From Candidatus Woesearchaeota archaeon (GTDB taxonomy: Archaea; Nanobdellota; Nanobdellia; Woesearchaeales; DSVV01): a stretch of DNA of 64,000 nucleotides. The notes under the pieces were generated by a model. The model ran no database searches and was not told the DNA's origin. It saw nothing but the letters and a program-made list of their open reading frames with translations. The first letter of the stretch is position 1, and every line of letters starts with the position of its first letter. Positions 4,272-52,361 of this stretch are shown here, piece by piece. Position numbers and translations under genes: made by a program. The stretch is taken from contig JACPTB010000002.1 in the NCBI GenBank assembly GCA_016192995.1, positions 98,283 through 162,282 on the forward strand, in the 5' to 3' direction.

Positions 4272-6449
4272 TTGAAATTCTCTATGCAGGATAAAGAGTT
4301 TGATTATCTCCAAGTGTTAAGGGCAGTAGATGAGATTCCGTTTGGTGTAGGAAAGAAACTATTAATCGAATTCTTGCAGGGAAAAGCAAAGACTGAATCC
4401 ATTATAAGAAACAAATTAAACAAAAAACAAACCTTCGGCTCATTAGCCTACGAGGATAATGAGCTTAGTTTAATGATTGATAAACTGCTTCTTAATAACT
4501 TACTGGAGATACAATCGCTTCAAGCAAATAAATTCTGGAAAATAATAGGATTAACTGAAAAAGGAAGAAAAGAACTGCAAAACCCTACTCTGCACAAAAA
4601 GAAGCTTTCAAATAATTTCAAAAACATAAAAACAGTGATTACAGAAAAAGAACGTGAACTATTTCTTGCGCTGGGAGATTTCATAAGTAAATATAACGAC
4701 GAACAAAAAAAAGCAATAATTTCTAACAAAGAACATATCCTCTGCCTTGCTGGAGCAGGAACAGGAAAAACATCAGTTTTAACAAAAAGAATTGAATTTC
4801 TAGTACAATATAAATCTGTTCAACCGCAGAAAATTCTCGCAATTACTTTTACGAGAAAAACGCGTGATGAAATGGTAAAAAGACTGAGCCAAAATCCGCA
4901 ATGCAACAATGTGCAGATAGAAACATTTAATTCATTTTGTGAACGAATGTTAAGAACACATAATAATTATTTGTATGACAAACCAATGGAAGTTATTATG
5001 TACAGGGATAAAATAAAAATTATCATGCAAGCGCTTAATAATTTGCATTTAGATATAAACAAAGCAATTGCAATTTATTTTACTAGCAACCAACAACGTG
5101 GAAAATCAAGCGAGCAATTGGCAAATATTTTCATGCATGACTGTTTTTTTGTGAGAGATTATTTTAAATCAAAAAACAAGCAGTTAAAACATGAAGAATT
5201 TGAAACAGATGAAGCAAAGCATGAACAAGCTGCAGCCATGATGTATGGCGTCTGCAATTATATTGACACTTACATGCAAAAATACGGATTGCGGGATTTT
5301 ACTGACCAGTTGCTTGACACATTAAAACTATTCACCCTTCACAAAGAATTAATCCCCAAATTTGATCACATCATGATTGATGAATATCAAGATATCAACA
5401 CAACACAAATTGAACTGATCAATGACCTTAATCCACCTAATCTGTTCTCTGTTGGCGATCCGCGACAATCTATTTATGGATGGCGAGGATCTGATATCAA
5501 ATTTATTCTTAATTTTGAAGATGCTTATCCAAATGCAGAGATAATTACTTTAACTAAAAACTATCGTTCATCACCAGCAATTGTTGATCTTATCAATAAA
5601 GCTATTGCGCCGATGGGATTAGCAGATCTTGAATCTGCGCAAGCTGGAAATACTAGAAATCCTGAAATAAAAATGTTAAAATGCCAGGATGAAAACGCTG
5701 AATTTTCGTTTGTAATCAATAACATAAAAAATACCACTCTTCCAAGAAATGAAATTTTTGTGTTAGCAAGAACAAACAGGCAATTAAAAGATCTCTCTGA
5801 TCTATTAAAATTACAAGATATTGCTCATGTTGTCCGCACTGATGAAACAAGAAAAAGAGTGTATACTGAACCTCATCAAATAACACTTGCCACAATCCAC
5901 GCAATAAAAGGACTTGAAGCGGAGATGGTATTGATTATAGGTTGCACAGCAGCAAATTTTCCCTGCAGAGCATCAGACCATCCAGTCATTGACATGATCA
6001 AAGTTGATGAATATGATAAAGAGGAAGAAGAAAGAAGATTATTTTATGTTGCCATGAGCAGAGCAAAACAAAACTTGTTTTTAACCTACACCGGCAAAAA
6101 CCCAACCTATTATATTACTCCTGAAATGCTCAAGATAGTACAACTTGATAAAACAATAGTTTCCAACCTAAAATTAGATAGTGAAATGCCTTCAATTTCA
6201 ATAAATACTGCTAAGAACAGGATAAGAAAAACAAATGCCAGTCAAATAGAAGAACGATTAAAACAATGGCGTTGGGAAATTGCGCAACAACACAGCATTC
6301 CTGCATACATGGTAGTCAGCAATAAAACCATTATCGAACTTGCCCAAAAAATGCCTTTAACAACGCAAGAGATGTATGATATTTATGGTCTTGGTCCAAA
6401 CAAAATTATGAGATATGGAGAAGAATTGTTAAAGGTATTGCATAGATAA
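4272..6449 (+). CDS. UvrD/PcrA-type SF1 DNA helicase with N-terminal RQC-like wing and C-terminal HRDC domain
   Basis: Walker A AGAGTGKT, motif II IMIDEYQD, motif IV NYRS, motif V TIHAIKGLE; C-terminal WRWEIAQQHSIPAYMVVSNKTIIELA...GLGPNKIMRYG is HRDC; N-terminal IPFGVGKKLLIEFLQGKAK resembles the RecQ RQC wing. Confidence 0.8.
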   Translation: MKFSMQDKEFDYLQVLRAVDEIPFGVGKKLLIEFLQGKAKTESIIRNKLNKKQTFGSLAYEDNELSLMIDKLLLNNLLEIQSLQANKFWKIIGLTEKGRKELQNPTLHKKKLSNNFKNIKTVITEKERELFLALGDFISKYNDEQKKAIISNKEHILCLAGAGTGKTSVLTKRIEFLVQYKSVQPQKILAITFTRKTRDEMVKRLSQNPQCNNVQIETFNSFCERMLRTHNNYLYDKPMEVIMYRDKIKIIMQALNNLHLDINKAIAIYFTSNQQRGKSSEQLANIFMHDCFFVRDYFKSKNKQLKHEEFETDEAKHEQAAAMMYGVCNYIDTYMQKYGLRDFTDQLLDTLKLFTLHKELIPKFDHIMIDEYQDINTTQIELINDLNPPNLFSVGDPRQSIYGWRGSDIKFILNFEDAYPNAEIITLTKNYRSSPAIVDLINKAIAPMGLADLESAQAGNTRNPEIKMLKCQDENAEFSFVINNIKNTTLPRNEIFVLARTNRQLKDLSDLLKLQDIAHVVRTDETRKRVYTEPHQITLATIHAIKGLEAEMVLIIGCTAANFPCRASDHPVIDMIKVDEYDKEEEERRLFYVAMSRAKQNLFLTYTGKNPTYYITPEMLKIVQLDKTIVSNLKLDSEMPSISINTAKNRIRKTNASQIEERLKQWRWEIAQQHSIPAYMVVSNKTIIELAQKMPLTTQEMYDIYGLGPNKIMRYGEELLKVLHR

Positions 6450-43482: not shown

Positions 43483-46400
43483 ATGAATGAACAAAAAATC
43501 CTGCGAATTAAAAAAAGAACTGGTGAATATGTTGGATTTGATCTGAAGAAAATTTCTAATGCTATTTTCAAAGCTGCCCAGGCAGTGGGAGGTTCTGATT
43601 ATAAAATCTCAGAACGATTAGCAGAACAAGTTTTTGACATGCTCAATGAACAGGACTTGAAAGAAGACATACCTTCAGTGGAAGATGTTCAGGATTGCGT
43701 TGAAAAAGTGCTTATTGAAACAGGACATGCAAAAACAGCAAAAGCTTTTATCTTATATAGACAAAAACGTGCAGAAGCACGATTAAAAGCTGATGCATTA
43801 GTTGGTATAAAAGGTTTGGAAGAAAAGCAAGATCCTTTTGGCGTGAATGAAGAATTATTCGGCAGTTCATTAACCAGCCATAATATCAAAGTTACGGTAA
43901 CTGAACCAATTGCAAAAATGTTTACGTATAACAGCAAATTATCCAAGTTAGTGGATAAAAATAAAATTAATGCCTATAGAAAATTATTTTATATGCTCAA
44001 GGATATGCAGAAGGAGGGTTCGTTGCCATTGCATCCTGCAAATGATTATTTAGCAGGCAATGAACTTGCCATGGATATTTACAGGAAAAAATATTATGTC
44101 CACGATCTTGATGATAACCTTATTGAGCAGCGTCCGGAAGATGTATTTGTAAGGCTTGGTTCTTATCTTGCATCTATTGAAGAAGATGAAGACAATCAAG
44201 TGTATTTTGCCCAGGAATTCTATAAAATGCTTTATGAAGGATATTTTGTGCCTGGCGGCAGAGTAATTGCTGGAGCTGGAGATTTATATAGATTAAAAAC
44301 ATTAGCAAATTGCTTTGTTTCAGTGATGGAAGATGATAACATTGAATCTATTTACAAAGCTGCTTTCGAATGTGCGCGAACATATTCATATGGGGGAGGA
44401 ATTGGCGTTGATATTTCTACCCTGCGTCCAAGAGAAGCTGTGGTACATAATGCAGCAAATTTCTCAACAGGCAGCGTTTCATTCATGGAAATCTACTCAT
44501 TAACAACAGGGTTAATTGGTCAAGCTGGAAGGCGAGGCGCATTAATGCTAACTATTGATGTTAAGCATCCTGATATTCTTAATTTTATTAGAGTCAAACA
44601 AGAATCAAATTGGGTGACAAAACAGATTAGGGAGCAATGCAGCTGGTCAGGAAAATTCAACGCTGAACAGCTGGATGCGATTGAAAAACAAGTTCGTGAA
44701 AACACCCAGGTAAGGTTTGCAAATATTAGCATGAAAGTTACTGATGAATTCATGACTGCTGTTGAAGAGCAAAATAAGTATGGAAAGGATAAAATAGTAG
44801 TGTATAAAAAATTTAGCAAATTGATTATTAATAGAGTTAACCAAAGCAAAGAAATGAATTTTGCCTTTGGCATTCCTTCAAAATATTTAGAGAATTATGA
44901 GTTATATAAAGTATTTGAAACCATTGAAGAAGCAAATGAGTTTATACATAAAGAAACAAACAAACAGATCTCCAAGCAATTGCTTGAAAATGTGCAGAAC
45001 AGGGACATTTATGGAGATGTAATTGTACCAGTAGAATCACAAAATTATGATTTAGCAGTGAGATATTCAGGTGATTATTTATTATATTTTAGTTCTGAAC
45101 CTGCAGGAGAAACAAGAAGATTAGTAAAAGCGCGGGATATTTGGGATGAATTTGTTAAAGGTAATTATCAAACAGCTGAGCCAGGATTAATATTCTGGTC
45201 AAGAATGACAAAGTATTCACCTTCTAATTATATAGGGAGACCAATTGCAAGTACAAACCCCTGTATTGCAGGAAACTCACAGGTATCAACAAGTAAAGGA
45301 TTGCAGCAAATAAAAGAGCTTGTTGGTAAAACGCCTCAGATTCTAACTGACAACCGAGTGCCTATACAAGTGAGAGATACTAACGGAAGAATTATGTTGC
45401 TCGAACAAAAACAACAAGGAGTAAGTTTTGACACTATAGAAGCAGCATGGTCATCGGGAATTAAAGAAACCTATAAACTTACCACAAAAAAGGGCTATGA
45501 AATCACTGCAACAGGTGATCATAAGATTATGACTACTGAAGGTTTTAAGCAGTTACATGAACTTACACCTAAAGATAAAATTTTAATCCAAAAAGGAGAA
45601 GGCATGGGAAACAATGATAAGCTATTATCTATTGAAAGAGATGAAATTATCAAAGGAGATAATAATCATATCTATCATTACAAATTCCCCACAACATGGT
45701 CAAAAGAACTTGGGCAATTGCTTGGTTGGACAGTAGGAGATGGATTTATCACTCCTGAACCAGATAATAGACTTGGGTTAGTATTTAGTAAAGAAGATGA
45801 AGACGTGATGAGCCAGTTAAAGAAGTTTATTGAGGAGATATATGGAAAAGAAACAAAACCAAGCATCAGAGAGTCTACAACACAATTAAGATACCATAGT
45901 AAATATTTTTGTGATTTTCTACGTAGATTAGGCATCAAAAGTGTAAAAGCTGAACTTAAGCAAGTTCCGCATAGGATATTTACTGCGCCAAAAGAAGCAG
46001 TAGTAGGATTTTTACAGGGATTGTTTACTGCTGATGGAACTATGGCAGTTGGCGAAAAAGGGAATTATATTCGATTAACTTCTAAGTCAGAAAAGCTTCT
46101 GAAAGAAATACAAATAATACTTATTAACTTAGGGATGTTATCTACAATCTATGAACGCCATCGAACTCCTCAGAAAAAATTTAATTACTATAATGCAGCT
46201 GGAGAATATAAAGAGTACATAACAGATGGGAAATTATGGGAGTTAAGTATAACTAAAGGAAGCTTGCAGCGATTTGTTGAAGAAATTGGGTTTATAGGAA
46301 GTAAACACCAAGAAAGAATAAAAGTATTTCTCACAAAGAAACAATACCAAGAACACTTTTACGATACTATAAAAAGCATAGAACCACAGGGAAAACAAGA

Positions 46401-47730
46401 AGTATTTGATCTAACAGAACCACGAACACATTCTTTTATAGCTAATGGCATTGTTATTTCAAATTGTGGTGAAGTGCCATTAGAAGACGGCGGCGCTTGT
46501 AATCTTGGATCAATTAATCTTTCTCGGTTAGTAATTGATGGTTTTACTGATACTGCAAGAATTAACTGGAACGAACTTGAACGAGTAACAAAGTTGGCTA
46601 CACGATTTTTAGATAATGTTGTTGGCTGGAATATTTCATTGAATGCTCTTGATAAACAACGGAGTGCTGCTGCAGAAACACGAAGACTTGGTTTGGGTGT
46701 TATGGGAATTGCAGATATGTTATTTCAGCTTGGTTTAGAATATGATAGTGAAGAGGGTATAGCAGTTATTGAGAAAGTTTGTCAGGTTATTGCTAATGCA
46801 GGTTATCGTGAATCCGCAGAATTAGCTGAAGAAAAGGGAGCTTCACCAGTATTTGATTATAACAAATACAGCCGCAACCCATTTTTTAAAGAAGCTCTTG
46901 ATGACAATACTAAAGAATTAGTCAAGAAAAAAGGATTGCGGAATATTGCAATACTTTCTATTGCGCCAACAGGAACTATTTCAAATATTGTATTAGGGTA
47001 TAAAGGAGAGCAAAAGAATTATATTGGTGTTAGCGGCGGTGTTGAACCGGTATTTGCAATATTTTACACGAGAAGAAGTGAAAATTTCGGCAACAAACGA
47101 TTTAACATCTTCCATTCAACAGTAAGCGCTTATTTGGATAAAAAAGGGCTCCAGGAAAAAGCGCAGTATGCAACAAGTGAAGACGAACTCCGCCAACTGT
47201 TGCCTGGATGCTTTTTTAGAACTGCCCATTATATTGAGCCTGAAAAAAGAGTTTTAATTCAGGGAGACTGCCAAAAATATACTGACCATAGTATTTCATC
47301 AACCGTCAATTTACCTGAAAGCATAAGCCCTGAAACCATTTCAGAGATTTACATTAAAGCATGGAAATTTGGCTTAAAAGGGATCACTATTTACCGTGAT
47401 GGAAGCAGGTACCCTATTTTAAGCATTCAGCAACAGCAAAGCGCATTTCAAGATTTCAAGAAAAAACAATTCAAATATGTCTCTGATGGAAAAGAAATCA
47501 TAGTAAGAGGCGACCAAGTTATAAAGCTGCCTCAGGGAAAGCTTTCAACGCCGTATCATGCGCAGAGAGAAAACATTCAAGGGATAGTGTTAACCGAGAT
47601 CACTGATCAACCAGCGATAACTGAAGAAGACAGTTCTAATAAAAATGAAGATCATAAAGATGATAACAAAGCTAAAGTCTGCACTATTAGTTTTGAAGAT
47701 GGAAAGCTTGTTAAATCATGCTCAGAGTAA
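43483..47730 (+). CDS. nrdJ: class II (adenosylcobalamin-dependent) ribonucleotide reductase with ATP-cone and intein
   Basis: N-terminal ATP-cone ILRIKKRTGEYVGFDLKKISNAIFKA; catalytic TNP-C...GEVPLEDGGACNLGSINL; C-terminal GLKGITIYRDGSR and terminal Cys pair. Confidence 0.85.
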   Translation: MNEQKILRIKKRTGEYVGFDLKKISNAIFKAAQAVGGSDYKISERLAEQVFDMLNEQDLKEDIPSVEDVQDCVEKVLIETGHAKTAKAFILYRQKRAEARLKADALVGIKGLEEKQDPFGVNEELFGSSLTSHNIKVTVTEPIAKMFTYNSKLSKLVDKNKINAYRKLFYMLKDMQKEGSLPLHPANDYLAGNELAMDIYRKKYYVHDLDDNLIEQRPEDVFVRLGSYLASIEEDEDNQVYFAQEFYKMLYEGYFVPGGRVIAGAGDLYRLKTLANCFVSVMEDDNIESIYKAAFECARTYSYGGGIGVDISTLRPREAVVHNAANFSTGSVSFMEIYSLTTGLIGQAGRRGALMLTIDVKHPDILNFIRVKQESNWVTKQIREQCSWSGKFNAEQLDAIEKQVRENTQVRFANISMKVTDEFMTAVEEQNKYGKDKIVVYKKFSKLIINRVNQSKEMNFAFGIPSKYLENYELYKVFETIEEANEFIHKETNKQISKQLLENVQNRDIYGDVIVPVESQNYDLAVRYSGDYLLYFSSEPAGETRRLVKARDIWDEFVKGNYQTAEPGLIFWSRMTKYSPSNYIGRPIASTNPCIAGNSQVSTSKGLQQIKELVGKTPQILTDNRVPIQVRDTNGRIMLLEQKQQGVSFDTIEAAWSSGIKETYKLTTKKGYEITATGDHKIMTTEGFKQLHELTPKDKILIQKGEGMGNNDKLLSIERDEIIKGDNNHIYHYKFPTTWSKELGQLLGWTVGDGFITPEPDNRLGLVFSKEDEDVMSQLKKFIEEIYGKETKPSIRESTTQLRYHSKYFCDFLRRLGIKSVKAELKQVPHRIFTAPKEAVVGFLQGLFTADGTMAVGEKGNYIRLTSKSEKLLKEIQIILINLGMLSTIYERHRTPQKKFNYYNAAGEYKEYITDGKLWELSITKGSLQRFVEEIGFIGSKHQERIKVFLTKKQYQEHFYDTIKSIEPQGKQEVFDLTEPRTHSFIANGIVISNCGEVPLEDGGACNLGSINLSRLVIDGFTDTARINWNELERVTKLATRFLDNVVGWNISLNALDKQRSAAAETRRLGLGVMGIADMLFQLGLEYDSEEGIAVIEKVCQVIANAGYRESAELAEEKGASPVFDYNKYSRNPFFKEALDDNTKELVKKKGLRNIAILSIAPTGTISNIVLGYKGEQKNYIGVSGGVEPVFAIFYTRRSENFGNKRFNIFHSTVSAYLDKKGLQEKAQYATSEDELRQLLPGCFFRTAHYIEPEKRVLIQGDCQKYTDHSISSTVNLPESISPETISEIYIKAWKFGLKGITIYRDGSRYPILSIQQQQSAFQDFKKKQFKYVSDGKEIIVRGDQVIKLPQGKLSTPYHAQRENIQGIVLTEITDQPAITEEDSSNKNEDHKDDNKAKVCTISFEDGKLVKSCSE
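45262..46464 (+). other. intein (401 aa) with LAGLIDADG homing-endonuclease domain, inserted before catalytic Cys of nrdJ
   Basis: N-terminal splice CIAGNS, block B TGDHKIMT, LAGLIDADG motifs LLGWTVGDGF and VVGFLQGLFTADG, C-terminal HSFIANGIVISN followed by extein Cys. Confidence 0.8.
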
Positions 47731-47828: not shown

Positions 47829-48446
47829 ATGGCTAGATATGGAAAAATCCAGGTATATACCGGAGATGGAAAAGGAAAAACAACAGCATCATTAGGATTA
47901 GCTCTGAGAACTGTTGGCCAAGGCGGTAAAGTATTTATTGTGCAATTTATGAAAGGCGGCGCATACACCGGTGAATTTATCAGCATCAAAAATTTCCTCC
48001 CAAAGATTGATATTATACAATTTGGAAGGGGCTGTGTTAAAGAAAAAAAACAAATGAAATTATTAGGGATTAATGAAGGAGCAAAATATTTTGATTTTGT
48101 GAGAGAAGATATTGAATGCGGACCTTGCAGATATTGTTTTCTTAATGACCAGGAACAAGTAAAATTCGTGAAAAGCGCTTTTGCCTTAGCGCAGAAGTTA
48201 ACTGCTTCAGAAGATTATGATTTAATTATTCTTGATGAAGTTAATGTAGCATTGAAATTAGGATTTTTGAGCATTGAAGAAGTGCTTGAATTAATGGAAA
48301 AAAAACACCCGCAATTGGAGTTAATAATGACCGGCAGAGATGCCCATGAAAAAGTAATGGAGAAAGCAGATTTAGTTACTGAAATGAAATTAGTCAAGCA
48401 TTATTTCGACAAAGGCACTTCTGCAAGAAGAGGGATTGAGTATTAA
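47829..48446 (+). CDS. cobO: ATP:corrinoid adenosyltransferase (CobO/CobA/BtuR family)
   Basis: VYTGDGKGKTTASLGLALRTVGQGGKVFIVQFMKG P-loop signature. Confidence 0.8.
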   Translation: MARYGKIQVYTGDGKGKTTASLGLALRTVGQGGKVFIVQFMKGGAYTGEFISIKNFLPKIDIIQFGRGCVKEKKQMKLLGINEGAKYFDFVREDIECGPCRYCFLNDQEQVKFVKSAFALAQKLTASEDYDLIILDEVNVALKLGFLSIEEVLELMEKKHPQLELIMTGRDAHEKVMEKADLVTEMKLVKHYFDKGTSARRGIEY

Positions 48447-48631: not shown

Positions 48632-50200
48632 TTAAGCTCTAAAACCAATGGAACTATAAGCATCACAAAATTTTTTAATTCTCCTGTCTTCTTTTTTATT
48701 TTCAGCTGGATTGGTATGACGAGAAACTAAACTAAGTGCCTTACCAAAGTCATCTGAAGAAATTGTTACGCCTGAATAATCTGCTTCAACTAAACCTGAA
48801 AGAGCTTCAAAAGTATCCCTGCTTCCTGCTTTTCGAGCTGCTGCTCTTTGCAAAGCAAAATGTCCTGCGCGATTGCAAATTTCTGCTAATGCTGCAGGGG
48901 TGTAACCTTCAGTAGCTTGCGCTAATGCATGAATAGTAACCTCTGAAGCTAATGGCTTAGCCCGAGTGTGTATTGCTAAAATTGCATCGCGTATTTTAAG
49001 ATCAGGTAATGGAACATGTAAGACATAACCAATTCTTCCAGGGCGCAAAAATCTATGATCAATTAAATAAGGATCATTAGTAGATCCTGATAATAAAATC
49101 CCTGAACGCTGTATCCCTGATAAATTATTCAACCAATTTGAAGTCGCAGCATGTTGTCCATCACTTGAACCATTAGCATCAAAAAGAAGTGCCTCAATAT
49201 CGTCACAATGGATAATAACTTCAGCTCCGGATTTTTCCCTTAAATCCTCAATAGCTGCTAATATTGAACCTTCATCTTCTACACGATTAGGCCGTGAAAG
49301 TTGAGTGCGTTTATCTAAAACTAATTGCATTGCGCTTAAAGGAATAAATAATGTTTTATAATCACCTGTAGCAAGAGCTTCTGCAATAAGGGTTTTGCCT
49401 GTTCCTTTGACACCTGCTAAAACAACTGATTCAGGTTTGCAGCCAAAATAACGTGCAGCATCTTTATTATTTCCTGAAGCAAATAACGTCCATTTCATAA
49501 ATTCTATAATTTCTTCAAGTCCTGCAATATCTTCTGAAGTTACTGCCCTTAATCCGATGCGTGATAAATCCCGGTATAAGGCGTAGATAAGATTTGCATA
49601 AGGATATGGTTTACCATGATTAAGAATGTAAGCTGTTTGAACAACACGCTGGGCAAAATCAAGTTCTCGTATATCATGCTGTTCCCTGATTTCTACTAAT
49701 GCTCTACCATCATAAAGCCAGTTTCCATCTTTTGAGCGTTGAGAAGCTTGTTCTTTGGTAAGAAATTTTCTGCAAACCCATATTCCTGTTGAGCCTGCTT
49801 CTTGAAAACCCCAATCCTTAAGAAGATAACCAATAGTAGTTTCACTTACTCCTGCATTCCAAGTAACATACTTACTCGCTGGTCGTTTGCCACCAAGAGG
49901 GTGAGAACGACATTGAATTTTATTTGGAGCATGAATATATCTTGCTAAATCTTCTAAAGCATCCATCTGCTCCTCAGTTATTCTTGGAAGATCCCAGTGT
50001 GCAATATGCCTGTATTGAAGATATCTATCTTGACCTTCTGATCGAGATTTGCTTACTAAAGGACAACTCAAAGCATCAGGTCTTAATCCACCAATGCTAT
50101 CAATAGCAGAATAAATAATACGATATATAGTTTGCAATACCTCTAGTTTATGAGGATCTAAAACAGTTAAAAGTGGATTGCTTTCATATCCCATACCCAA
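48632..50200 (-). CDS. classic-clade AAA ATPase with ~270-aa N-terminal domain of unknown function; compositionally atypical
   Basis: Walker A GVKGTGKT, Walker B IIHCDDIE, second region of homology FLRPGRIGYVLHVPLPD; A/G/R/L-rich unlike neighbours. Confidence 0.6.
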   Translation of the reverse strand: MGMGYESNPLLTVLDPHKLEVLQTIYRIIYSAIDSIGGLRPDALSCPLVSKSRSEGQDRYLQYRHIAHWDLPRITEEQMDALEDLARYIHAPNKIQCRSHPLGGKRPASKYVTWNAGVSETTIGYLLKDWGFQEAGSTGIWVCRKFLTKEQASQRSKDGNWLYDGRALVEIREQHDIRELDFAQRVVQTAYILNHGKPYPYANLIYALYRDLSRIGLRAVTSEDIAGLEEIIEFMKWTLFASGNNKDAARYFGCKPESVVLAGVKGTGKTLIAEALATGDYKTLFIPLSAMQLVLDKRTQLSRPNRVEDEGSILAAIEDLREKSGAEVIIHCDDIEALLFDANGSSDGQHAATSNWLNNLSGIQRSGILLSGSTNDPYLIDHRFLRPGRIGYVLHVPLPDLKIRDAILAIHTRAKPLASEVTIHALAQATEGYTPAALAEICNRAGHFALQRAAARKAGSRDTFEALSGLVEADYSGVTISSDDFGKALSLVSRHTNPAENKKEDRRIKKFCDAYSSIGFRA

Positions 50201-50330: not shown

Positions 50331-52361
50331 ATGCCCCTTGAAAAAGTCATTAAACGGAATGGTGAAACTGTAGTTTTTGATCCAAAAAAGATCACAGATG
50401 CATTGTACAAAGCAGCGCAAGCTATTGGAGGAACTGATGAAGAGCTCTCTAAAGCATTAACAAAAAAGATTGTAGCAAAGATAGAAGAATTATTTCCTGA
50501 CAAAATCCCCCATGTTGAAGATGTTCAGGATGTTGTTGAGCGTGTTTTAATAGAAGACAATCATGTAAAAACAGCAAAAGCATATATTTTGTATAGGGAA
50601 CGCCAAAAAAATATCCGGGAGGTAAAACAGTCATTAGTAGGAGGATATGTTGATAAGCGCTTTACTATTAATGCATTAAAAATTCTCAAAGAACGATTAT
50701 TAATGAAAAAAGAAGATGGCGCTGTTGAAACGCCTGAAGATATGTTTAGAAGAGTAGCAAAAGAAATAGCAAAAGCAGATAAACAATATGATAATGAGCC
50801 AAACCTGAAAGAAACTGAAGATAAGTTTTTCGAGTGTTTAAACAAGCTTGATTTTTTGCCAAACTCGCCCTGCTTAATGAACGCAGGAACCAAAAATCAG
50901 CAGTTAATTTCATGCTATGTCCTACCAATTGAAGACAGCACTGAAAGTATTTATACAACATTAAAAAATGCTGCAATGGTGCATCGTACAGGTTCAGGAA
51001 CAGGCTTTTCTTTTTCCAATTTAAGACCAAAAGAAGATACGATCGATGATTCTCGTGGATTTTCAGCAGGGCCAATTCCATTTATGCATGTCTATGATAA
51101 ATCAACAGAAATAATCAAGAAAACTGGTTTAAGGCGTGGCGCAAACATGGCAGTGTTGCGTGTTGATCACCCCAATATCCTCGATTTTATTACCGCAAAA
51201 GAAAATCCCCATCACTTGAGAAACTTCAACATCTCTGTTGGCATTACAAAAGAATTTATGGATGCATTAGACAACAGAAAACGATATCCATTAATTAATC
51301 CGCGAACAAAGCAGGAAGTTCGTTTATTGCCTGCTAAAGAGGTCTTTGATTTAATTGCAACAATGTCGTGGAAAAATGGTGAGCCAGGAGTTATTTTCCT
51401 TGATACTATTAATGAGAAGAACCCTGTTCCTGAACTTGGTGAAATAAAAACAACCTCTGCCTGCGGAGAAGTGCCTTTGCTTGAATATGAAGCATGCCCG
51501 CTTGGCTCAATAAACTTATCTAATATGGTGCAAGGAGGCAGGGTCAATTTAGCTGCATTGCGGGACACTGCGTGGATTGCAGTGCATTTTCTTGATAATG
51601 TTATTGATGTAAATAAATACACCTTAAAAGACAGTGAAAAAATAACTAATGATAATAGAAAAATAGGAGTTGGAGTTATGGGTTTTGCAGATATGCTGTA
51701 TCAGTTAGGGGTTCCTTATAATAGTGAAGAAGCAATAAAAGTAGCAGAAAGAATCATGAAATTTATTCGTGATGAAGCAAGATTAGCTTCAGAAGCTCTA
51801 GCAAAAAAAAGAGGAGTATTTGCAAATTATGAAAAAAGCATATATGCAAAAAAAGGAATAAAGCAAAGAAATGCGACAACAACTGCTATTGCGCCAACAG
51901 GAACAATCTCATTAATTGCTGATTGTTCTTCAGGCATTGAACCGAATTTCGCTTTAAGTTACATGAAAAAAATCACCGGTGGGGATGAGTTATTATATGT
52001 TAATAAGCATTTAAAAAGCGAATTATTGAAAAGAGAGATTTATTCTGAAGATTTAATGAAAGAAATTGCATCAAAAGGATCACTCCAATCATTTTTGGAT
52101 TTAGCATCAGAAATCAGAAAAGTGTTTGTTATTAGCCATGAAATACCTGCAGAATATCATGTATTAATCCAAGCAGCATTTCAAAAATATTGCGATAATG
52201 CAGTTTCAAAGAGCGTTAATTTAGAGTACACTTCAAGCAAAGAAGATGTCGTTAAAACCTTCAAGCTTGCTTACAAACTAGGGTGTAAAGGAATAACCAT
52301 TTATCGAGATAGAAGCAGAGAAGATCAGATTTTAACACTATTAGGGGGAGAAGCAATATGA
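50331..52361 (+). CDS. nrdJ: class II ribonucleotide reductase (short paralog, no intein)
   Basis: ATP-cone VIKRNGETVVFDPKKITDALYKA; TSACGEVPLLEYEACPLGSINL; GCKGITIYRDRSR. Confidence 0.8.
   Translation: MPLEKVIKRNGETVVFDPKKITDALYKAAQAIGGTDEELSKALTKKIVAKIEELFPDKIPHVEDVQDVVERVLIEDNHVKTAKAYILYRERQKNIREVKQSLVGGYVDKRFTINALKILKERLLMKKEDGAVETPEDMFRRVAKEIAKADKQYDNEPNLKETEDKFFECLNKLDFLPNSPCLMNAGTKNQQLISCYVLPIEDSTESIYTTLKNAAMVHRTGSGTGFSFSNLRPKEDTIDDSRGFSAGPIPFMHVYDKSTEIIKKTGLRRGANMAVLRVDHPNILDFITAKENPHHLRNFNISVGITKEFMDALDNRKRYPLINPRTKQEVRLLPAKEVFDLIATMSWKNGEPGVIFLDTINEKNPVPELGEIKTTSACGEVPLLEYEACPLGSINLSNMVQGGRVNLAALRDTAWIAVHFLDNVIDVNKYTLKDSEKITNDNRKIGVGVMGFADMLYQLGVPYNSEEAIKVAERIMKFIRDEARLASEALAKKRGVFANYEKSIYAKKGIKQRNATTTAIAPTGTISLIADCSSGIEPNFALSYMKKITGGDELLYVNKHLKSELLKREIYSEDLMKEIASKGSLQSFLDLASEIRKVFVISHEIPAEYHVLIQAAFQKYCDNAVSKSVNLEYTSSKEDVVKTFKLAYKLGCKGITIYRDRSREDQILTLLGGEAI

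Follow-up and report, generated by a model that had tools for sequence, protein, structure and literature searches.

The window analyzed here, a 64,000-nucleotide stretch of contig JACPTB010000002.1, carries a long nrdJ gene for a ribonucleotide reductase (RNR) whose open reading frame (ORF) holds a 401-codon insert directly before the cysteine of the active-site motif. Our analysis identifies this insert as a true intein of class 1 that has a LAGLIDADG homing endonuclease nested in it, placed before the thiyl-radical cysteine of a class II RNR. We estimate the probability of this reading, with the account of splicing and homing given below, at roughly 90%. Positions are those of the window, Cys1 is the first intein residue, Cys+1 is the first residue of the C-extein, and a slash marks a junction between extein and intein or the point of insertion.

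The intein and its host enzyme

The long nrdJ ORF (43483..47730, + strand) encodes 1415 amino acids (aa) in a single uninterrupted frame, and the intein occupies 45262..46464 on the same strand as 401 in-frame codons with no stops. The codons at the two junctions are CCC (Pro, 45259-45261) followed by TGT (Cys1, 45262-45264), and AAT (Asn401, 46462-46464) followed by TGT (Cys+1, 46465-46467). By these codon positions, the interval given for the insert in the initial annotation is exact to the base. In translation, the junctions read IASTNP/CIAGNS...GIVISN/CGEVPLEDGGAC, and over a longer span RPIASTNP/CIAGNSQVST...HSFIANGIVISN/CGEVPLEDGGACNLGSINLS. Deleting the 401 aa rejoins the host as ...STNPCGEVPLEDGGACNLGSINL and regains the conserved host motif STNPCGEVPLEDGGAC, which is uninterrupted in the NrdJ of Thermotoga maritima and, among the matches listed, in 91 close orthologs. 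The spliced-junction sequence lacking the intein is ...ACAAACCCCTGTGGTGAAGTG..., and the intein-less homing site was reconstructed over 60 bp as ATAGGGAGACCAATTGCAAGTACAAACCCC/TGTGGTGAAGTGCCATTAGAAGACGGCGGC. An identical 1415-aa protein was found on 3 Logan contigs from separate sequencing runs, so the intein-bearing ORF is not an assembly artefact.

Profile searches and structure prediction both identified the insert as an intein. It matched Pfam Intein_splicing (PF14890, E 3.9e-19) and LAGLIDADG_3 (PF14528, E 6.6e-21), the latter over intein aa 246-343, as well as the NCBIfam models for the N-terminal (TIGR01445, E 4e-11) and C-terminal (TIGR01443, above cutoff) intein regions. The segment also matched the intein-bearing portions of many NCBIfam models, and its sequence matches among solved structures were the DnaB, VMA, PI-PkoII and RecA inteins. 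An AlphaFold2 model, built with an alignment of 48 sequences, reached a predicted local distance difference test score (pLDDT) of 93.3 and a predicted template modeling score (pTM) of 0.92. In this model, beta-rich N- and C-terminal lobes flank a two-fold helix-sheet core. The approximate layout is a HINT N-lobe (aa 1-112), a linker with a beta-hairpin (aa 113-145), the endonuclease (aa 146-358) and a HINT C-lobe (aa 359-401), and the predicted order of secondary structure in the endonuclease fits a pseudo-dimeric alpha-beta-beta-alpha-beta-beta-alpha core. The top Foldseek matches in the PDB were inteins associated with a homing endonuclease (HEN), namely TliVMA (7qsu, E 3e-23), PhoVMA, PI-PfuI (1dq3), PI-PkoII and PI-SceI. 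The splicing lobes matched mini-inteins including 4o1r and 6fre, and the endonuclease core matched I-DmoI and I-Tsp061I with target-normalised TM-scores of 0.63-0.74. The LAGLIDADG intein identity proposed in the initial annotation is therefore confirmed by the Pfam and NCBIfam matches, a confident model and the Foldseek matches to solved inteins.

Residue conservation was assessed by aligning the window intein with 74 allelic inteins (75 alleles in total; all positions on the + strand). Cys1 of block A (45262..45264), the predicted nucleophile of the N-S acyl shift, is Cys in 75/75 alleles. Block B reads TGDHKIMT (aa 84-91, 45511..45534), and its Thr84 (B:7) and His87 (B:10), whose roles are assigned following Mills et al. 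2014 (PMC4031507), are both invariant (75/75). The first LAGLIDADG motif (block C, LLGWTVGDGF, aa 153-162, 45718..45747) holds the putative catalytic Asp160, which is Asp in 74 of the 75 alleles and Glu in 1 and lies at the end of a predicted helix (148-160) in the AlphaFold2 model. The second (block E, FLQGLFTADGT, aa 250-260, 46009..46041) holds the putative catalytic Asp258, Asp in 73/75, within the predicted helix 244-258. Blocks F and G (46402..46464), the region matched by TIGR01443, consist of VFDLTEPRTHSF with Asp383 (74/75) and His390 (44/75), followed by ANGIVISN with Ser400 and Asn401. Of the 75 alleles, 37 end in Asn, 28 in Asp and 9 in Gln, and the penultimate position holds His in 26, Leu in 26 and Ser in 18. 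Cys+1 (46465..46467), the expected splicing nucleophile and later the Cys of N-P-C-G-E, is Cys in 73 of the 74 fetched loci. Besides Cys1, the intein contains just one further Cys. The window intein is canonical at all scored splicing and endonuclease positions except the penultimate residue, a departure that the initial annotation did not mention. The junction strings, TGDHKIMT and both LAGLIDADG motifs quoted in the initial annotation are all present as described there, with the acidic residues intact.

A subgroup pattern appeared among the C-terminal residues. All 28 Asp-terminal alleles carry Leu, Lys or Tyr at block F:13 and Leu or Val as the penultimate residue, never His, while 44 of the 46 Asn- and Gln-terminal alleles keep His at F:13. 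This pattern suggests that the Asp-terminal subgroup uses a distinct C-terminal cleavage chemistry.

The exteins together form a class II RNR by sequence homology. The N-extein (aa 1-593, 43483..45261, +) comprises an ATP-cone (aa 8-97, 43504-43773, +; Pfam ATP-cone 7e-19), an all-alpha domain and the first half of the barrel, and ends in STNP, with the Asn codon at 45256-45258 and the Pro codon at 45259-45261. The C-extein (46465..47730, +; 421 aa and a stop codon) carries the second redox Cys in GGACNLGSINL and, by ortholog comparison, a C-terminal tail VC-x12-C-S-E (47674-47727, +); this tail, as VC-x12-C-[SA]-E, is kept in 7 orthologs, intein-free or intein-bearing. With the intein still in place, the protein scored 487.7 bits against TIGR02504 (NrdJ_Z, adenosylcobalamin-dependent; cutoff 400), and the class I model TIGR02506 (NrdE/NrdA) gave 225.9, under its cutoff of 341, in agreement with the class II assignment made initially. 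Pfam matches were Ribonuc_red_lgN (2e-10) and Ribonuc_red_lgC (1.4e-96 across aa 276-1304). The nearest solved relative of the spliced 1014-aa extein is the T. maritima B12-dependent RNR 1xje (phmmer E 6e-75). The restored STNPCGE aligned on the INSTNPCGE of that enzyme, which a count of chain residues numbers N320-P321-C322-G323-E324, and the insert had thus been correctly placed immediately before the Cys of N-P-C-G-E. C322 corresponds in class II to the thiyl-radical cysteine of E. coli, C439, so that Cys+1 is the radical site by homology. The Asn and Glu of the motif are conserved in class I and II RNRs (PMC4493059). The spliced protein would hold the class II catalytic set, with N592-P-C-G-E and the redox Cys residues in LANCFV and GGACNLGS.

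The genes next to long nrdJ were consistent with this assignment. An ATP:corrinoid adenosyltransferase gene (47829..48446, +; Pfam CobA_CobO_BtuR, E 1.4e-56) starts 99 bp downstream. Enzymes of this kind make adenosylcobalamin, the cofactor of class II RNR, and the neighboring gene fits the adenosylcobalamin dependence that the sequence of the long NrdJ suggests. No nrdB was noted among the window ORFs scanned, in a scan that was not systematic, and an Rfam scan of the 64-kb window returned no cobalamin riboswitch ahead of the long or the short nrdJ. The long nrdJ appears to be maintained, because the ORF is intact, the catalytic Cys, Asn and Glu are present, the redox tail is kept and the corrinoid adenosyltransferase gene adjoins it.

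The long NrdJ subfamily has two expansions of its own. An insert of about 157 aa lies in the barrel (extein aa 377-533, 44611-45081), at a place taken up by about 30 residues in T. maritima NrdJ, and the ATP-cone is followed by an extended linker (aa 100-215, 43780-44127). The barrel insert has no Pfam match. We considered it as a second intein or a remnant of one and rejected this, as it is conserved in intein-free orthologs (about 50% identity) and matches no intein hidden Markov model (HMM).

Proposed splicing and homing, and alternative readings

The conserved residues, read against the standard class 1 pathway (PMC4031507), suggest the following mechanism. The 1415-aa precursor would be translated as one chain, and splicing would begin when Cys1, with the help of the block B residues Thr84 and His87, attacks the peptide bond that joins it to Pro593 (an N-S acyl shift). 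Trans-thioesterification would then move the N-extein onto Cys+1. Cyclisation of Asn401, helped by Asp383 and His390 of block F and with Ser400 in place of the usual penultimate His, would free the intein, and an S-N shift would make the native Pro-Cys bond and restore STNPCGE. The finger loop with Asn-x-Cys-x-Glu would be able to form in the barrel only after these steps. Because the 401 residues split the finger-loop motif Asn-Pro/Cys-Gly-Glu, the precursor is expected to be inactive; it should be catalytically dead and the spliced 1014-aa NrdJ active. The excised 401-aa protein would act as a site-specific endonuclease that cuts intein-less nrdJ at the NP/CGE codons, and repair of the cut would copy the intein in (homing).

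Several features weigh against this reading. The penultimate His (G:6) is absent, with Ser400 in its place. The -1 extein residue is Pro, and in several engineered intein systems a Pro at this position prevents or delays the first step of splicing. The GC content of the intein (34.1%) equals that of the window (33.5%), so the insertion is not recent, and in an intein resident for so long the endonuclease may have decayed despite intact motifs. The second nrdJ of the same genome is intein-free, which is compatible with an inactive endonuclease or with a non-cleavable site. The first two features argue for adaptation rather than defect, because the absence of the penultimate His and the -1 Pro are both family-wide: His is absent in 49/75 alleles, a Ser-Asn terminus occurs in 18/75 (17 of the 74 fetched loci and the window), and Pro stands at -1 in 74/74 fetched loci. 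Functional inteins without the penultimate His, and inteins ending in Asp or Gln, are documented (PMC4031507). This His is thus frequent but not obligatory, and Ser400 is no bar to class 1 membership; the allelic family may also be naturally tolerant of a -1 Pro. The same counts bear on a dead-end intein, which we regard as very unlikely. In that case Ser400 and the -1 Pro would impair splicing so badly that the long nrdJ amounts to a pseudogene, and the deoxyribonucleoside triphosphates would come from the short NrdJ. The missing His and the presence of a second nrdJ would fit, but the 4.2-kb ORF is intact, the catalytic residues of extein and intein are all retained, and the short paralog is the less canonical enzyme, with Ser for a conserved Asn and no C-terminal Cys tail. 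A conditional intein, in which redox or temperature gates splicing (for example, through a Cys1-Cys+1 disulfide) to withhold the radical Cys while the second NrdJ serves as an alternative isozyme, is improbable, if less so than the dead end. Cys1 and Cys+1 are both cysteines, one other Cys is present in the intein, and two nrdJ genes coexist in the window. Redox-controlled splicing is also known for other inteins (references in PMC4031507), a DnaB intein acts as an oxidative stress sensor (PMC6195587), and an RNR R2 intein is reported to benefit its host through better iron loading (PMC8772380). However, no sequence feature is specific to regulation, Cys1 and Cys+1 are the family default, and the 91 empty sites in close orthologs favor a selfish element over a conserved regulator. 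That the intein is kept as a post-translational gate, with the organism switching by conditions between the long NrdJ and the atypical, tail-less short NrdJ, seems slightly more doubtful again. The idea that the insert is a lineage-specific domain of an NrdJ subfamily, which the initial annotation had named as the alternative to check, can be set aside with a probability well below one in a hundred. Long NrdJ does bear other inserts of this sort, in the barrel and the N-terminal linker, but intein-free orthologs conserve those. Of these orthologs, 91 lack the 401-aa segment; its NP/CGE junctions are exact, the splice-junction residues are present, and HMM matches and fold likewise indicate an intein.

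How the intein spreads was examined by comparing it with its exteins. Among the C-extein matches listed (about 51-69% identity), 91 have an uninterrupted NP/CGE and in 2 an intein clearly ends there; two further fragments, P0054 and P0001, are intein-derived. Over 72 loci, intein identity to the window copy did not correlate with that of the flanking extein (Spearman -0.14, p 0.24). At L049, which has the closest extein (69%), the intein is 43% identical, and inteins at 50-51% identity were found in exteins just 35-37% identical. The same site is occupied in archaea and in bacteria of many phyla. By these comparisons, spread of the intein looks mobile, and the pattern fits an allele family still cycling by homing, because occupancy is sporadic, intein and extein identities are uncorrelated and retention of the endonuclease Asp residues is near universal. 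The main competitor is a splicing-competent but immobile intein, whose endonuclease no longer cuts and which persists only because imprecise loss would destroy the active site. We consider this possible, at odds of about one in three. Fully ameliorated GC and a paralog left uninvaded in the same genome are in its favor, and many large inteins carry inactive endonucleases (PMC8966425). In PhoVMA, it is the loss of the LAGLIDADG Asp residues that makes the endonuclease inactive (PMC8966425). The window intein, in contrast, has kept its two catalytic Asp residues together with a complete double alpha-beta-beta-alpha-beta-beta-alpha architecture, and the distribution of its family is sporadic and host-independent. 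On balance, we lean toward an endonuclease that is still active in the window intein and homes into intein-less nrdJ alleles.

The short NrdJ paralog and other genes of the window

A second, short nrdJ (50331..52361, +) encodes a 676-aa NrdJ that scored 648 bits against TIGR02504. It contains no intein, as the initial annotation stated. Its relation to the long gene needs qualification. Identity between the two is about 34% over the extein core and 50% in the ATP-cone, and by these values the short nrdJ is a distant paralog and not a recent intein-less copy. The paralog site homologous to the insertion point lies at 51432-51491 (+), with the motif TTS-A-C-G-E and its Cys codon at 51462-51464. 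The initial annotation had proposed searching the paralog for the homing site. This comparison was run, and the paralog site GAACTTGGTGAAATAAAAACAACCTCTGCC/TGCGGAGAAGTGCCTTTGCTTGAATATGAA agreed with the intein-less site reconstructed for the long gene at 28/60 positions and at 15/24 in the central window, with 6/15 on the N side and 12/15 on the C side (half-site counts made by hand). True orthologous empty sites in two other genomes (L081 and L082) reached just 16/24 in the central window. With 16/24 in orthologs and 15/24 in the paralog, the identity count cannot tell whether the paralog is a target.

The short NrdJ is unusual in its own right. It has Ser-Ala (codons at about 51453-51470) where class I and II RNRs have Asn-Pro before the radical Cys. 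The replaced Asn corresponds to T. maritima N320 and E. coli N437 (PMC4493059). Of the 150 cluster representatives most similar to the short paralog, the motif is readable in 131. It is uninterrupted in 78 of these, nearly all with Asn (NP, NL or NA) and one other with Ser (P0255, VSG/CAE). About 53 of the 131 (about 40%) have an insert directly before the Cys, and these inserts apparently derive from more than one intein lineage. The short NrdJ also ends in ILTLLGGEAI (52330-52358) and lacks the C-terminal Cys pair that the long NrdJ family has. An identical short NrdJ protein is present on 6 public contigs, so neither the Ser motif nor the missing tail is a sequencing error. The sequence suggests that the short NrdJ may be a catalytically altered or differently reduced RNR. 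In this respect, the intein-free paralog is more curious than the intein itself.

Between the adenosyltransferase gene and the short nrdJ, on the opposite strand, lies a divergent AAA+ ATPase gene (48632-50200, -) with a TTG start, an arrangement also seen on independent contigs. AAA and AAA_lid_3 were matched in its C-terminal half, and the N-terminal 250 aa had no Pfam match. A UvrD/Rep-type helicase (4272-6449, +) combines a UvrD core with RecQ-type accessory domains, an N-terminal RQC and a C-terminal HRDC. Other genes encode a TrmB regulator, an ELP3-like radical S-adenosylmethionine protein, a beta-CASP RNase and a phosphoenolpyruvate synthase. Across the 64 kb (1-64000), ARAGORN found no tRNA genes, and no Rfam family reached its gathering score. 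Gene content and the best matches of intein and extein point to a DPANN (Woese- or Nanoarchaeota-like) archaeon with a GC content of 33.5%.

Occurrence of the insertion site and comparison with known systems

Relatives of the intein were found widely, the best of them mostly at one site. When 5.8 billion proteins were searched with the intein, 52 matched. In 47 of these the matching segment lay within an RNR fragment, and the matches came from Nanoarchaeota, Aenigmarchaeota, Nitrosopumilus, Omnitrophica, bacteria of the candidate phyla radiation, Chloroflexi and Fervidobacterium. Where junctions were visible among these matches, they read xTNP/C...N/CGE. Contigs from one genome per species were then scanned with a 7-sequence alignment (A1), and at least 591 stretches were confirmed as relatives. 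Junctions were read in the best 80 of these, Asp- and Gln-terminal alleles included, and the identical junction xxNP/C.../CGE was readable in 74 of the 80. Archaeal hosts among the best 80 were DPANN, Methanoperedens, Heimdallarchaeota and Thermoplasmatales. Bacterial hosts were Omnitrophota, Planctomycetes, Spirochaetia, Saccharibacteria and Firmicutes, including the cultivated Thermoanaerobacterium thermosulfurigenes.

The initial annotation had treated the site as noteworthy. Among RNR inteins, however, this position directly N-terminal to the thiyl-radical site is the canonical one and the one most often occupied (Dassa et al. 2009, PMC2677866), in line with the 74 of the best 80 loci found here. 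Among proteins ranked by number of inteins, RNR comes second in bacteria (211) and fourth in archaea (43) (Novikova et al. 2016, PMC4760082). The site is a notable exception in general, yet it has long been known. Judged by its sequence, the window intein is a new member of a very well-populated, long-known allele class and a routine example of it.

The finding bears chiefly on annotation, and its significance beyond that is small. Public homologs of the intein-bearing RNR (P0001, P0004 and P0012) are labeled by their source merely as 'LAGLIDADG family homing endonuclease', and the host enzyme is thus mis- or under-annotated in public homologs because of the intein. The proper annotation is an nrdJ that contains an intein and yields a mature product of 1014 aa, neither a 1415-aa fusion nor a 'LAGLIDADG endonuclease'. 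The 75 same-site inteins, whose Asn, Asp and Gln termini covary with blocks F and G, offer a natural experiment in C-terminal cleavage chemistry. The allele family could also give intein engineers Pro-tolerant inteins, although nothing in it is new in kind.

The solved HEN-associated inteins TliVMA (7qsu/7qss), PI-PfuI (1dq3), PI-PkoII (2cw7) and PI-SceI share the fold of the window intein, in which a LAGLIDADG endonuclease with two motifs splits the HINT domain. Foldseek E-values range from 3e-23 to 1e-10 at just 11-21% identity, and their hosts are other proteins (V-ATPase, DNA polymerase). In the predicted model, the window intein has a small linker hairpin where they have a large accessory or DNA-recognition domain. 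PI-PfuI is absent from the sequence-search matches of the window intein and is not a sequence-level relative; we take it to come from the P. furiosus RNR. The split NrdA inteins of 'fractured genes' (Dassa et al. 2009, PMC2677866) come with GIY-YIG or Vsr-like endonucleases encoded by free-standing genes, whereas the window intein is contiguous, with its LAGLIDADG domain nested.

A distant homolog at the same motif was found in Bacillus phages. By our translation of phi3T, the RIR1 intein in bnrdE of SPbeta/phi3T occupies the homologous position, FSNL/CVTGE...IVTGN/CSEVL, directly before the Cys of N-x-C-x-E. It is of LAGLIDADG type and similar length (25% identity, E 6e-16 to the window intein). 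It differs in its host, a class Ib NrdE in a phage, in its -1 Leu in place of Pro, in its penultimate Gly and in a very divergent sequence. The link to the Pyrococcus RNR intein was drawn from NF006207, a 1684-position model of an intein-containing RNR that is presumably built on Thermococcales. This model is co-linear with the long NrdJ through N-extein, intein and C-extein, with protein positions 541-1332 aligned on profile positions 806-1579. The Carboxydothermus 'Chy RIR1' intein, which has an Asp terminus, is presumably a studied member of the family (Amitai et al. 2004).

The nearest systems are the allelic NrdJ inteins at xTNP/CGE, which share the host enzyme, the insertion point and the HINT and LAGLIDADG architecture with the window intein. 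They are 355-437 aa long (median 409, compared with 401 aa in the window), are 43-55% identical to it over the 72 loci compared, and include the intein of the cultivated T. thermosulfurigenes DSM 2229 (L017). The intein contained in model NF006207 is counted with them. The closest matches are a partial Nanoarchaeota protein (71%) and the complete intein L001 (55%). Endings in the allelic family are HN, SN, LD, VD or HQ, and the window intein ends in Ser-Asn.

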